This document shows positions 11,626-63,787 of a stretch of DNA of 64,000 nucleotides, piece by piece (position 1 is the first letter of the stretch; each line of letters starts with the position of its first letter). The translations under genes were made by a program, and so were the position numbers. The notes beneath the pieces were generated by a model. That model searched no databases. It saw only the letters and a list, made by a program, of their open reading frames with translations, and was not told the DNA's origin. The stretch is taken from sequence record NC_052661.1, one strand, 5' to 3'. This DNA comes from Escherichia phage ukendt.

Positions 11626-11940
11626 ATGTCAGAAGAACTTAAAGAATTTTATCAGGCATATCATAACTGGCTGTTAGCTGGTGCTCCAGATAATAATCCT
11701 TTCTGGCACGATAAAGGGTTATGTAGTTGCCTCTACCTTTGGACTGGTGGTTACGATGATCTAAATTATGAAATGCAAATGCAATTTCGAGAAGCAGGGT
11801 TGTCTGAAGAATACCCGTTTGATGACGGGGACAGGTTTAAATATGATTTTGCACAAAGAAACGGGCTGCTACATTTGAATGCTGCCCGTATAAAATGGGT
11901 AAAAGATCATGCTACACAGGAGGATGTGCAATGCCTATAG
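11626..11940 (+). CDS. hypothetical protein, WVKDR paralog family member 2
   Basis: ORF track; conserved GLCSCL and KWVKDH motifs. Confidence 0.6.
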   Translation: MSEELKEFYQAYHNWLLAGAPDNNPFWHDKGLCSCLYLWTGGYDDLNYEMQMQFREAGLSEEYPFDDGDRFKYDFAQRNGLLHLNAARIKWVKDHATQEDVQCL

Positions 11941-12131
11941 TGTTTGTTTTCTTGGCGATTGTTATTGTAGTTCTTTTCGCTGCATGGCTTTGGGATTTTG
12001 ACCCAGGAGCCGCGCAGCAAAGAGCTACAGACTTGAAAGAACAATGTATTGTGCTCAAACATGAACGAAATGCGGAGAAATTTCTTGACCTGGAGTGTGA
12101 TCGCCTTGTAAGATACAAGCAAGATAAATAA
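11931..12131 (+). CDS. hypothetical membrane protein (66 aa)
   Basis: In-frame ATG; hydrophobic MPIVFVFLAIVIVVLFAAWLW. Confidence 0.45.
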   Translation: MPIVFVFLAIVIVVLFAAWLWDFDPGAAQQRATDLKEQCIVLKHERNAEKFLDLECDRLVRYKQDK

Positions 12132-12145
12132 CCTTGAGGTGCAAA

Positions 12146-12334
12146 ATGGTAATTGAGATTAAACTTGAATATGCTGGGGCTGTTGCCTTGATCGCACAAA
12201 TGCTTGGAGCAAAGATTGAAGAAGTGTATATCAATGCCTGGAGCGTAGAGATTGATGTTCCTATGGATAACATTGCTAATCGCTTGCTGGTAGCAGAGTG
12301 TGAACGCACCAACATAATCTACAAAGGAGCATAA
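12146..12334 (+). CDS. hypothetical protein (62 aa)
   Basis: In-frame ATG; track start 12134 is TTG. Confidence 0.45.
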   Translation: MVIEIKLEYAGAVALIAQMLGAKIEEVYINAWSVEIDVPMDNIANRLLVAECERTNIIYKGA

Positions 12335-12335
12335 T

Positions 12336-12557
12336 ATGAAAATTAGAGTTTGTGATGTATTGGGTTATGTTGGTTTTGAGAATGTTCAGATTCCTTTTGT
12401 TGTTGAAGCACATCTTGTTAGCGATGATATGACAACATTCTTTGTTACGATAGAAGAAATGTCTAAAGTTGAGGGATGGGAGTGGTTTGAAGAAGATGTT
12501 TGGGAAGGTTGTGATTACGTATTTTTCTCTGACGAAGTGAATGTTCTTTCGGAGTAG
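12336..12557 (+). CDS. hypothetical protein (73 aa), DYVFF-motif pair with 8001
   Basis: ORF track; RBS caaaggagcataat. Confidence 0.5.
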   Translation: MKIRVCDVLGYVGFENVQIPFVVEAHLVSDDMTTFFVTIEEMSKVEGWEWFEEDVWEGCDYVFFSDEVNVLSE

Positions 12558-48940: not shown

Positions 48941-49900
48941 TTAGATTCCAATGATAGTTGCTGCTCGTTTATCCTTGGATCTGGTGTTTGCTCTACTACG
49001 TGACAAACCTCCGCAAGATTCACAACGAATGATATCGAAAGAACTTACCGCAGTGTGGTATTGTTTACCAGTAACAACGTGAACGTGATCACTGCCACAA
49101 CGAGAACAACGGACCTTCTCATCTGGGTAATAAGCGGATAAGTTAGGATGCTGCGGAATCCACGGAAGGATTTTCATATACAAATCACGGAGTGAAACAA
49201 CATCACCATCATTGTAAATCTGCATACGTTCAAAAGCATCACGATCACCTTCACAACATGCTTTCCATAAAGGGAACCCCTCGTTATCCAGTTTTTCACT
49301 TTCTGTTTCGAAATATGCTCCCATTTCTTTAAGGGAGTTGGAAGGAAGTGCAAATTGTTTCTTAGCTGCCTTCAATGTATCAACAACTACATAATTAGAA
49401 GGAGGAGCCATATCGTGATATGCAAATCGTTGGTTAATGTATGCACGGTCAAACTTATATCCGTTGTGTGCCACAACTACATCTGCCTCATTCAGAAGGT
49501 TCCAAAGATCTTGGCAAAGCTCCCAATCATCTGTATGATCAATATCAAAAAGAGGATAAGAAGACAAGTTCTTACCTTCTACCTCACCAGTATACAGGTC
49601 AGCAGAAGAGTAAGATAACAAATAACCCCTACGAATTACTTGATCTGGAGAAATGAAGGCTTTGAATCGACGGAAAGTATATGCAATCTCTGGTGCAGTT
49701 TCAACATCAATAATTTTAATAACTGGTTGTTTCTTTTTAACTGGCTCTTGTTTACTTGCTCCAAATCGTGCAAGGAAATCGTTCACTGTGCTTTTTCTTG
49801 TTGGACTACCTAAAACAATTGCTGCAATATTGCGAGAAGACATACCCTCTGCACTCATACTAAGGATATCTGCTTTCTGCTCTTCTGTTAATCTGCTCAC
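48941..49900 (-). CDS. DnaQ-like (DEDD) 3'-5' exonuclease with N-terminal HTH and C-terminal zinc ribbon
   Basis: Exo I IDVETAPE and Exo II VVAHNGYKFD motifs; CSRCG...CESCGG. Confidence 0.55.
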   Translation of the reverse strand: MSRLTEEQKADILSMSAEGMSSRNIAAIVLGSPTRKSTVNDFLARFGASKQEPVKKKQPVIKIIDVETAPEIAYTFRRFKAFISPDQVIRRGYLLSYSSADLYTGEVEGKNLSSYPLFDIDHTDDWELCQDLWNLLNEADVVVAHNGYKFDRAYINQRFAYHDMAPPSNYVVVDTLKAAKKQFALPSNSLKEMGAYFETESEKLDNEGFPLWKACCEGDRDAFERMQIYNDGDVVSLRDLYMKILPWIPQHPNLSAYYPDEKVRCSRCGSDHVHVVTGKQYHTAVSSFDIIRCESCGGLSRSRANTRSKDKRAATIIGI

Positions 49901-51015
49901 TCTGCCTCCTGTTGCGAGATGTATGACTGAAGCATACTCTCAAATGTTGTATCGTCATTATCCCAGCGTTTCATGTATACCAACTGGAAAATTGTTTCTA
50001 TCCATTCATCTGTTGTCATATGGACTTCTTCTCCATCCCAAGAAGTAAAATTAACACCATCTGGGAACCATGAGTAGTAAGTATCTTTAACTGTTTGGAA
50101 AAGTTCTGCTTGAGTTTTACAAGCTGAAAGAAGATTAAAACAAGTAATATCTCCGAACTTAATATCAAAATCTTGATAAGGTCGGATACTATCTGTTTTA
50201 TCTCCCATTAGCATCTGATATGCTAACCAGTAACTGCCCCAACCTTTAACTTCTTTCTTTTTACCTTTATCTACGATCCATATATCGCCAATAGACTCGT
50301 CAATAAGAATTATATCTGGATTTTTAAATACTCCATCCTCTTTGTAGAAATTAAAAAGGATACTAGGAGTATGTAAACTATCTTTATCTATAGACACTAC
50401 GATATAAGAAAATTTACCCGTCCTTTTATAATCTTTATAACCTTGGAAACCATACTTCTCTAACTCATCATCAGCTTCTATTACAGTAACAACATCACCA
50501 TTGTGGAACTCCACAAGATAATCTTTGGTTTCTGAAAGCTGAAGTGGTTTGATATCTAATCGTTCAGATTTATATTCTACAGGCATTTTGAAGGCGTGTC
50601 TGAAAGTTTTTCCTACGCCAATAACTCCGCAATATTTTTCTAAACGTAGATGTTTTAGAATACCTAAGACTTTTGTTTTAGCTGCTTGGAAGGTGTGTCC
50701 GATATCTTCTGGCGGGTATTGCTTATCAATGATTTCGAACTCTTCCTTTGTGAAGGGACGTTTGTTTTTGGAGGCTCTTTCTGCATTTGTATCTCCTAGC
50801 CAACCTCCAATTTTAGTCTTGCTTTTACCCCAAAACTCTGTCTTATTTTTAAATTCCTTTTGAGCACCTGAAGGGATGTGCTTCGCAATGATTGTTCTTT
50901 TCTCTAATGCAGACGCTGCTTGGAAAGCGATCTGATCATAATCAATTGCAGCTATTGTTTCTTCGTTGACATATAAATGAAGATCTTCAGGTTTAATTAA
51001 AATATAACCGCTAAT
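49897..51015 (-). CDS. 5'-3' exonuclease / flap endonuclease; start codon non-canonical or unresolved
   Basis: FEN motifs GVGKTFR...EYKSER, VIEADDE, LMGDKTDSIRPY; FEN-like N-terminal residues lie upstream of the first ATG (50586) in a stretch with no in-frame ATG/GTG/TTG; 5' end set at ATT 51015 after AGGGGGA. Confidence 0.7.
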   Translation of the reverse strand: MSGYILIKPEDLHLYVNEETIAAIDYDQIAFQAASALEKRTIIAKHIPSGAQKEFKNKTEFWGKSKTKIGGWLGDTNAERASKNKRPFTKEEFEIIDKQYPPEDIGHTFQAAKTKVLGILKHLRLEKYCGVIGVGKTFRHAFKMPVEYKSERLDIKPLQLSETKDYLVEFHNGDVVTVIEADDELEKYGFQGYKDYKRTGKFSYIVVSIDKDSLHTPSILFNFYKEDGVFKNPDIILIDESIGDIWIVDKGKKKEVKGWGSYWLAYQMLMGDKTDSIRPYQDFDIKFGDITCFNLLSACKTQAELFQTVKDTYYSWFPDGVNFTSWDGEEVHMTTDEWIETIFQLVYMKRWDNDDTTFESMLQSYISQQEAE

Positions 51016-51027
51016 ATTTCCCCCTAA

Positions 51028-51237
51028 TTATTCATCGTCATCCTCTGTTGAGAATGTTTTAGTATACGGACATTGACGACTTTTCGGGATTGCTATAACT
51101 TCATCTTGGTTAGCGTTAGAATAGTAACAATATTTTGTATTGCCATTAACTTCAGAATCAGACAAGATTAAAGTAATTTGACCTGCTGCTACTGTGAAAC
51201 TAAAAGCTAAAAGAATGACTGTTAGAATCTTTTTCAT
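51028..51237 (-). CDS. hypothetical secreted protein (69 aa)
   Basis: ORF track; signal-like MKKILTVILLAFSFTVAAG. Confidence 0.5.
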   Translation of the reverse strand: MKKILTVILLAFSFTVAAGQITLILSDSEVNGNTKYCYYSNANQDEVIAIPKSRQCPYTKTFSTEDDDE

Positions 51238-51309
51238 AACGCCTCCTAAAAAGCCTACCTCATTAAGTAGGTAGGCATAGTATCATAACTAATCCCGCAA
51301 GTCAAGAAC

Positions 51310-60995: not shown

Positions 60996-61247
60996 ATGCC
61001 GATCACTCCCCATTTGGGGTTCGAAGGATATATGCAAAATAGCTTTTATTTTAGGTGCCGTGCTTGTAATAGGCATTTGACAAACCACTCCAGACGTGAT
61101 AAAAATGGAGTCATCAAGGAATCAGACCTCTGTTCTATTTGCACAGGTTTGGCTTTTGATGATAGTCCCGAAAGGGTTTATCAGCATCAATGTATAACAG
61201 ACGTTCTCGTGTCAAACTTGGTAGAGGACGAACAACTAACAGATTAG
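60996..61247 (+). CDS. hypothetical zinc-finger protein (83 aa)
   Basis: ORF track; CRACNRH...CSIC. Confidence 0.5.
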   Translation: MPITPHLGFEGYMQNSFYFRCRACNRHLTNHSRRDKNGVIKESDLCSICTGLAFDDSPERVYQHQCITDVLVSNLVEDEQLTD

Positions 61248-61255
61248 GAGGAACA

Positions 61256-61504
61256 ATGTCTCTATTAGAAAAACACGTGTTTGAAGATGGTAACGGCAAT
61301 GCAGTTTTTCTTTTCCATCCAGAAAAATACACATCTGAAAACAATGGTACAACTTCTATTGTAATCACTAAAGATGTTAAAGTTATTGATTTCTTGGCTC
61401 TGATGCGAGAGATGGATCTTGAAATTAATACTTTTAACGCAGAAGCTTTGGTTGTTGCTCTTCTGGAAAAGAAAGATAGTGAAGAAGTAGCAGAATATGC
61501 TTAA
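61256..61504 (+). CDS. hypothetical protein (82 aa)
   Basis: In-frame ATG after RBS attaggaggaaca. Confidence 0.5.
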   Translation: MSLLEKHVFEDGNGNAVFLFHPEKYTSENNGTTSIVITKDVKVIDFLALMREMDLEINTFNAEALVVALLEKKDSEEVAEYA

Positions 61505-62137: not shown

Positions 62138-62225
62138 GGAAGGGCAAATCGACGTGGCGACGAAAACGGTCTTGAAAACCGCCGAGCTTGAAAGAGCCTT
62201 GGGAGTTCGACTCTCCCTCCTTCCG
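62138..62225 (+). tRNA. tRNA-Ser (anticodon TGA), class II
   Basis: acceptor GGAAGGG, loop CUUGAAA, long variable arm, discriminator G, CCA encoded; D-arm irregular. Confidence 0.7.
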
Positions 62226-62232
62226 CCAGATT

Positions 62233-62448: not shown

Positions 62449-62533
62449 GGTGAGTTAATTCCGTAGGGGTAGCGGGGCAGACTGTAAATCTGTTATCATT
62501 GCGATTCGGGTGGTTCGACTCCATCACTCACCA
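62449..62533 (+). tRNA. tRNA-Tyr (anticodon GTA), class II
   Basis: loop CTGTAAA, long variable arm, discriminator A; 5-nt spacer between acceptor and D-stem is atypical. Confidence 0.65.
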
Positions 62534-62542
62534 CCAAATTAA

Positions 62543-63593: not shown

Positions 63594-63669
63594 AGCGGGA
63601 TAGAGGAGTCTGGTCGTCCTCGCCAGTTTCATATGCTGGAGATCATTGGTTCAAATCCGATTCCCGCCT
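63594..63669 (+). tRNA. tRNA, anticodon CAT, initiator-like (1:72 mismatch, T-loop TTCAAAT)
   Basis: acceptor AGCGGGA/TCCCGCC with A1-C72 mismatch, D-stem GAGG/CCTC, stem CCAGT/GCTGG, loop TTCATAT. Confidence 0.6.
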
Positions 63670-63787
63670 CCAAATATCGCTTGCCAGCGGTATCTTTGAA
63701 GACCTTGCCTGGTTCCTTCTAAGATGGAGGGGTGCGACTCCTTAACGCACAATTATAATAAAGCATTTCAAATTAACAGTATTTATT

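Follow-up and report, generated by a model that had tools for sequence, protein, structure and literature searches.

Initiation of translation at AUU is well established in Escherichia coli for infC (of thrS-infC) and pcnB, and these genes are the closest described parallels to the gene considered here, a flap endonuclease (FEN)-type 5'-3' exonuclease gene of Escherichia phage ukendt (NC_052661.1). The stretch analysed, referred to below as the window, comprises 64,000 nucleotides (nt) of this sequence and is of the Phapecoctavirus, phAPEC8-like type (Stephanstirmvirinae). The codons AUA, AUC, AUU and CUG were reported to initiate at 1-2% of AUG (range 0.02-3%) in neutral reporters (bioRxiv 10.1101/063800), and AUU was 6-8-fold below AUG in a standard single-cistron reporter with a 4-nt Shine-Dalgarno (SD) sequence (PMC3592434). 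At the infC junction, UAA GGU AUU, the output was 4-fold below that of AUG and was the sum of re-initiation and de novo initiation (PMC3592434). Initiation factor 3 (IF3) selectively disfavours non-canonical starts, which are inhibited by excess IF3 (PMC2268962). In the case of pcnB, which encodes poly(A) polymerase I, the inefficient AUU start is described as keeping down the translation of an enzyme whose overproduction does harm (Binns and Masters 2002, as given in PMC3592434).

The phage FEN gene resembles infC in having an AUU codon, a preceding SD and the stop codon of an upstream cistron a few nt away; the phage junction is like that of infC in its upstream stop, which overlaps or abuts the SD, its A/U-rich spacer and its AUH (AUU, AUC or AUA). 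The spacing in the phages is longer than in infC (UAA GGU AUU) and variable, namely TAA-12 nt-ATT in the window and TAG-8/9 nt-ATH in relatives. Another difference is that infC is autoregulatory, its product being IF3 itself, whereas the product of the phage gene is a nuclease and any dependence on IF3 would be one-way. The likeness to pcnB lies in the AUU start; the proteins are unrelated. The same ATT start has been annotated before in one phage, ESCO13 (KX552041.2), as an annotation only. Because AUU initiation is well established from infC and pcnB, the conceptual novelty of this gene is limited. What is new is the comparative evidence, by which an AUH start appears to be kept clade-wide although its third base has changed between T, C and A; the sister groups have ATG, GTG or TTG instead.

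The reading frame and its start region

The FEN frame lies on the minus strand and runs without a stop from TGA at 49899-49897 back to TAA at 51030-51028, which gives 376 sense codons. When the frame was scanned for ATG, GTG and TTG, the first of these was found to be ATG 50586-50584, which is preceded by 143 codons counted from the ATT at 51015-51013 and by 147 counted from the upstream stop. The TAA at 51030-51028 also terminates an open reading frame (ORF) of 69 amino acids (aa) with a signal peptide (51237-51028), in the same frame as FEN. The features at issue are the following.

49897..51015, minus strand: full-length FEN-fold 5'-3' exonuclease coding sequence (CDS) of 372 codons and a TGA stop, proposed to start at ATT
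51013..51015, minus strand: proposed non-canonical start ATT (AUU), the first codon past the SD
51020..51025, minus strand: SD AGGGGG, followed by a 4-nt A/U spacer, AAAT (51019-51016)
51028..51237, minus strand: 69-aa signal-peptide ORF, PHROG 4641; its TAA abuts the SD and precedes the ATT by 12 nt
50584..50586, minus strand: internal ATG (Met144), the start in most GenBank records, giving a truncated product of 229 aa

The frame, its stops, the first ATG and the shared TAA are all as the original prediction, made from the sequence without database searches, had described them. It had also located the ATT correctly; the spacing of 4 nt, which it counted from AGGGGGA, is 4 nt from AGGGGG and 3 nt from AGGGGGA, a trivial difference.

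Based on all of the evidence presented below, the FEN gene is best explained as one intact CDS of 372 codons, 51015-49897 on the minus strand, translated from AUU at 51015-51013, and we put the probability of this reading at roughly 85%. Of the internal codons of 75 window genes, 5.3% are ATG, GTG or TTG, which gives P ~3.5e-4 for a given stretch of 146 codons with none of the three; runs of 123 and 109 codons free of these triplets do exist inside other genes. The oddity of the FEN gene is the position of its start-free run, at the 5' end of the gene. Of the window frames with 120 codons or more, FEN has 147 codons between the upstream stop and a canonical start; in every other real gene there are at most 27, and no other conserved coding region without a canonical start was found among these frames. 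Two further frames, 11912-12364 (minus strand) and 61135-61500 (minus strand), have start-free leaders of 55 and 44 codons and no ATG anywhere in frame, and are probably non-coding shadow frames.

From the upstream stop, the minus strand reads TAA TTA GGG GGA AAT ATT AGC GGT TAT, with I-S-G-Y encoded from the ATT. The duplex of the SD at this ATT with the 3' end of 16S rRNA was calculated at -9.3 kcal/mol, against a median of -8.8 kcal/mol for the 75 window genes, while ATG 50586 is without an SD (duplex energy +0.4 kcal/mol). The neighbouring genes share the 4-nt spacer (AGGAGG-CGTT-ATG and AGGAGG-CAGA-GTG). Folding of the RNA in the 100 nt around the FEN start gave no structure beyond that of shuffled controls (z = -1.26), and therefore provides no evidence of a structural switch there. 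The gene thus falls in the class of near-cognate starts: it has no canonical start, and its AUH codon is properly spaced from an SD at the 5' end of a conserved coding region.

Further support comes from the comparison with relatives. Start regions were gathered from GenBank phages, IMG/VR, metagenome contigs and Logan/ENA assemblies, and were reduced to 14 distinct lineages with 53-100% protein identity to the window. Degenerate DNA pattern scans returned 36 loci, more than half of which were chance matches (GYILIEPE-like peptides, GroES-like and others), and only those loci with the downstream DYDQxAFQ motif were used. In all 14 lineages AGGAGG or AGGGGG is followed after 4-5 nt by ATT, ATC or ATA, so the AUH-start arrangement is conserved among the orthologs, and in none of the 14 does ATG, GTG or TTG occur at the AUH codon or before it. 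The start codons are distributed as follows.

ATT, 5 lineages: window type, phi92 type, L064, L065, L067
ATC, 7 lineages: phiWec179 type, L014, L015, L031, L034, L035, L063
ATA, 2 lineages: L056, L066

Past the AUH codon, the variation is synonymous, as in coding sequence (GGT/GGC/GGG, TAT/TAC, ATT/ATA/ATC, CTT/CTG/TTA/CTA/TTG), and upstream of it the SD is the sole conserved element. Metagenomic relatives have ATC-GGY-TAY where the window has ATT-AGC-GGT-TAT. In the window, the AUH codon comes 12 nt after the upstream stop. This spacing is 8 nt in L065 and the phi92-like phages, 9 nt in L066 and six metagenomic lineages, 11 nt in L064 and the phiWec179-like phages, 17 nt in L063 and ~119 nt in L067. 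In L015/L027 and L035 an in-frame TAA stands immediately before the ATC, which in these lineages leaves no space for another start further upstream. The absence of G from the third base across the 14 lineages is weakly significant, the lineages not being independent, and it is not used as a main argument. In four outgroups, PBES02, ChuuTotoro, Seunavirus and Mydovirus, the codon homologous to the window ATT is ATG or GTG. The outgroup starts are these.

PBES02: GAGGAG-TGAGTA-ATG GGT TAT (M-G-Y-P)
ChuuTotoro: ATG GGT TAC
Seunavirus and Mydovirus: GTG GGA TAT
rV5: AGGAGG-GTCT-TTG

Initiation at the ATT was the first of three options in the original prediction, and it is this option that the 14 lineages, with their SD, spacer of 4-5 nt and ATT, ATC or ATA, and the ATG and GTG of the outgroups support.

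Several points weigh against translation from this AUU. The literature searched holds no N-terminal peptide, ribosome profiling or reporter data for the FEN gene. A third base that is T, C or A but never G is also expected of a sense isoleucine codon and by itself does not prove a start; because this pattern fits sense isoleucine, the start-codon argument rests on the in-frame stops just upstream. The distant lineages L065 and L066 carry an ATG 8 codons downstream, where translation could start. Moreover, the SD is only average in strength, not exceptional, and the purpose of such a start, low and IF3-sensitive expression, is one that we infer.

The nuclease and the coding nature of its N-terminus

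The protein matches PHROG 107 ('exonuclease') over residues 14-371 with an E value of 1e-55. A Pfam scan of the 376-aa frame gave nothing above threshold, while precomputed assignments of PF02739 (5'-3' exonuclease N-terminal domain) were present on 9 distant homologs with 26-50% identity. Searches of PDB sequences, both with the single protein and with a 12-sequence profile, gave no real match, and the fold was therefore compared instead. The AlphaFold2 model, built from 68 homologs, has a mean predicted local distance difference test (pLDDT) score of 96.4 and a predicted template modelling (pTM) score of 0.90, and forms a single compact fold. Its top structural matches are all FEN/5'-3' exonucleases, and it contains the elements of the FEN fold, namely a PIN-like alpha/beta core, a helical arch and a helix-three-turn-helix (H3TH) DNA-binding module. 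Identity to solved FENs in the family of T5 D15, E. coli ExoIX, T4 RNase H and T7 gp6/SP6 exonuclease is 12-21%, and the phage protein is ~100 residues longer than T5 FEN owing to insertions. The gene product is assigned as a 5'-3' exonuclease of T7-gp6/SP6 type with a flap-endonuclease fold, for which structure-specific 5' nuclease activity is predicted. The flap endonuclease identity originally proposed is thereby borne out by PHROG 107, by PF02739 on the distant homologs and by the FEN matches of a high-confidence model.

Residues E180, D182, D183, D210, D212, D272 and D275 are invariant in all 68 homologs. Three more acidic residues, D25, D27 and E38, lie upstream of the first ATG; they do not vary among 12 diverse sequences and show at least 90% conservation across the 68. 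These carboxylate clusters fit a metal-binding pattern; we infer their match to the active-site residues of T5 FEN, the two proteins not having been aligned residue by residue. A 229-aa product from ATG 50586 would, judging from these residues, lack part of the active site.

In tblastn searches the protein has relatives in 1,211 phage records, and the alignments begin at query residues 1-29 in rV5, PBES02, Seunavirus, PAK_P, ICP1 and others. Between the window and 8 related lineages, the proportion of nonsynonymous differences (pN) over the N-terminal 143 codons is 0.16-0.26 and that of synonymous differences (pS) 0.63-0.84; since pN is far below an essentially saturated pS, these codons are under purifying selection as protein. 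The N-terminal 143 codons are, by these comparisons, conserved coding sequence. The original prediction had named homologs starting at the equivalent of 50586, with a non-conserved region upstream, as the observation that would speak against it; the upstream region is in fact conserved, and the homologs start near the ATT.

Alternatives to initiation at the AUU

Among the alternatives, the one that survives best, improbable as it is, places the start at one or more later non-canonical codons, such as the ATT codons for residues 5 and 7 or the ATA for residue 21. Several in-frame ATT and ATA codons do lie inside 25 codons, and near-cognate initiation is inefficient everywhere, for which reason the exact start cannot be fixed from sequence alone. 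Nevertheless, the conserved SD at its usual spacing of 4-5 nt serves the first AUH codon only, and the ATG and GTG starts of the outgroups align to ATT 51015, not to later codons. The residues S-G-Y-I-L-I are conserved with synonymous changes, and residues 5-7 are structured in the AlphaFold2 model, where they already form a strand. Canonical TTG or GTG codons a few codons downstream, as found in phiWec179, phi92 and some metagenomic lineages, were also considered as the real start and rejected, as they are not conserved and represent synonymous Leu/Val variation. The TTG of phiWec179 (Leu11) is CTT, CTG, TTA or CTA in other lineages, and is therefore an ordinary leucine codon. The internal GTG of phi92 sits within a DYDQ-V-AFQ motif, and a start there was rejected, as it would remove the DxD motif.

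A much less probable explanation is a degenerate or split gene, in which ATG 50586 would yield just the C-terminal 229 residues and the 440 nt upstream of it would be the remains of a decaying sequence. Most public records annotate the 229-aa form, and ATG 50586 is the first canonical start. Against decay, purifying selection has acted on the N-terminal region across lineages so diverged that their synonymous sites are saturated. This region has the invariant D25, D27 and E38, and it belongs to the single FEN fold. No stop or frameshift was found in it across the 14 lineages and more than 120 genomes. ATG 50586 has no SD, and its methionine is not conserved in the outgroups.

Read-through or suppression of the TAA at 51030-51028, by which the nuclease would be a C-terminal extension of the 69-aa protein, possibly by means of a phage tRNA, is more doubtful still. 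The two ORFs are in the same frame in the window with a single TAA between them, several metagenomic lineages with 9-nt spacing have the same layout with TAG, and a 444-aa 'fusion', P0005, is present in a public protein database. In other lineages, by contrast, stop-start distances of 8, 11, 17 and ~119 nt put the two ORFs out of frame or far apart, and L015/L027 and L035 have a second in-frame TAA right before the ATC. The upstream gene in L065 encodes a DNA methyltransferase, and in the outgroups the nuclease is encoded by a distinct gene that starts from an ATG or GTG of its own. A cytoplasmic DNA nuclease fused to a cleavable signal peptide would in any case be implausible. The candidate natural fusion P0005 (locus L058, 1501-2835) was rejected as a gene-caller artefact: the DNA has TAG, which the caller read as Gln, and the missing canonical start of the FEN gene apparently led it to assume that the contig uses a recoded genetic code.

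The tRNAs of the phage bear on the same question. Default ARAGORN missed 2 of them, tRNA-Ser(TGA) and tRNA-Tyr(GTA), and the cluster comprises 12, not 10 (the phAPEC8 record annotates 11). All 12 have sense anticodons: Met, Arg-TCT, Ser-TGA, Ser-GCT, Tyr-GTA, Asn, Thr, Gly, Gln, Pro, Ile-GAT and tRNA(CAT). The original prediction had suggested that unusual phage tRNAs might suppress the stop, but none of the 12 has a stop anticodon. Details of three of them are as follows.

62138-62227, plus strand: tRNA-Ser(TGA), whose best Rfam match is a below-threshold tRNA-Sec (37 bits); not a suppressor
62449-62536, plus strand: tRNA-Tyr(GTA), Rfam tRNA 39 bits; not a suppressor
63594-63672, plus strand: tRNA(CAT), the last of the cluster, 79 nt, Rfam tRNA 47 bits, annotated 'tRNA-Pseudo-CAT' in phAPEC8

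Programmed read-through would go with the same frame in all orthologs and with a suppressor tRNA or a read-through context. Read-through was rejected, because the frame is not conserved, the upstream gene differs and there is no suppressor tRNA; the second option of the original prediction is contradicted by the variable spacing, the second TAA, the differing upstream gene and the sense tRNAs. Its third option, a sequencing or assembly error that removed an ATG, is favoured by nothing but the oddity itself and has a negligible probability. Many laboratories and platforms contributed the 124 phage records that match the 60-nt start region (52 at 99% identity or more, most of those identical). 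The region also occurs in IMG/VR and metagenome contigs and in diverged lineages with ATC or ATA, and more than 120 concordant genomes contradict an error.

Proposed mechanism, gene neighbourhood and annotation

Returning to initiation at the AUU, the mechanism would follow from E. coli biology: the 30S subunit would bind the SD and bring the AUU into the P site, fMet-tRNA would pair with this codon despite a mismatch at the third position, and the protein would start with fMet-Ser-Gly-Tyr. In most lineages the upstream stop is 8-17 nt away and overlaps or abuts the SD, so terminating ribosomes may add re-initiation to de novo initiation. Coupling to the upstream cistron would not be essential, because in L067 the gap is ~119 nt. 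The likely purpose of such a start would be a low, IF3-sensitive level of a potentially harmful nuclease, whose toxicity in excess is presumed. By analogy, the logic proposed for pcnB, a weak AUU start that limits a harmful enzyme, most likely applies to the phage nuclease. It is possible, but we regard it as rather unlikely, that the AUH start is a selected regulatory device kept throughout the clade, with nuclease synthesis tracking the IF3-to-ribosome ratio and the translation of the preceding cistron.

More remotely, the initiator-like phage tRNA(CAU) at 63594-63672 might alter the stringency of start-codon selection. It has an unpaired A1xC72 atop the acceptor stem, and we take its acceptor and T arms (GCGGG..., GGTTCAAATCCG) to resemble those of the E. 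coli initiator tRNA. The three anticodon-stem G:C pairs are absent, and the D stem is an odd one of 5 bp with a 9-nt loop.

The FEN gene is flanked by the following elements.

48941..49900, minus strand: RNase_H_2-type 3'-5' exonuclease gene, downstream of FEN, whose GTG start overlaps the FEN stop
51253..51305, minus strand: promoter-like TTGACT-17-TACTAT (51305-51277), then a GC hairpin and T-run (51276-51253)

The FEN stop and the start of the 3'-5' exonuclease gene overlap in GTGA (49897-49900, minus strand), with AGGAGG 4 nt before the GTG, and this gene too thus has a non-ATG start. The rdgC gene, the 69-aa ORF, FEN and the 3'-5' exonuclease gene form a tightly packed block that is probably translationally coupled. 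The 69-aa ORF has a predicted signal peptide and conserved cysteines (..KYCYYSN..RQCPYTKTFSTEDDDE), and its homolog in phi92, gp086, is annotated with a signal peptide. A gene for a small secreted-type protein thus sits inside a block of DNA-metabolism genes. In 11 of the 14 lineages this ORF is the immediate upstream neighbour of the FEN gene. In the others, the place is taken by a small ORF of similar size in L066 and (~119 nt off) in L067, and by the methyltransferase gene in L065. The promoter at 51253-51305 is sigma-70-like with an extended -10 TG and is followed by the hairpin, of 8 bp and GC-rich, with a T-run that ends right at the ribosome site of the 69-aa ORF. At this place the ASO2A record annotates a terminator. 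The hairpin could be the terminator of the upstream rdgC overlapping a promoter, or a promoter-proximal attenuator.

A 2.1-kb query around the FEN start matched 63 phage records at 95-99.5% identity. Of about a dozen records inspected, all but that of ESCO13 mis-annotate the FEN gene. GenBank KX552041.2 carries the identical 372-codon CDS from ATT (AQM50955.1) together with a ribosome binding site (RBS) feature; the ATT start is not mentioned in the ESCO13 genome announcement. Literature searches returned no description of the FEN ATT start and nothing specific on AUU starts in phages. The other records place the start as follows.

phAPEC8, ev052, iGC_PHA_EC001 and ASO2A: FEN start at ATG 50586
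phi92 and Antha: FEN start at an internal GTG
phiWec179: FEN start at an internal TTG
PATM: FEN gene split, with an antisense 'putative exonuclease' CDS added (locus L060, 1335-1559)

The phi92 record itself remarks on FEN, 'No RBS identified; weak Prodigal statistics'. In phAPEC8, the gap left by the truncated FEN is occupied by a 40-aa filler ORF in another frame, G377_gp266 (window 50664-50786, minus strand). Filler ORFs in this gap are spurious.

At least 124 deposited phage genomes carry this start region, for which the correct model would be a protein of 372 aa from the ATT, and gene callers that allow only ATG, GTG and TTG will repeat the truncation. The finding is a useful correction of annotation and a clean natural example of a conserved weak start, not a new mechanism. 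Few near-cognate AUH starts are known to be kept by all orthologs of a clade with U, C or A, but never G, as the third base, and this one would be added to them. If the start is indeed a selected device, the IF3 ratio or re-initiation would time or cap the nuclease, and a change to ATG would be deleterious to the phage. In this clade one can ask, in a natural setting, for what reason a viral nuclease stays under a weak start that IF3 discriminates against.

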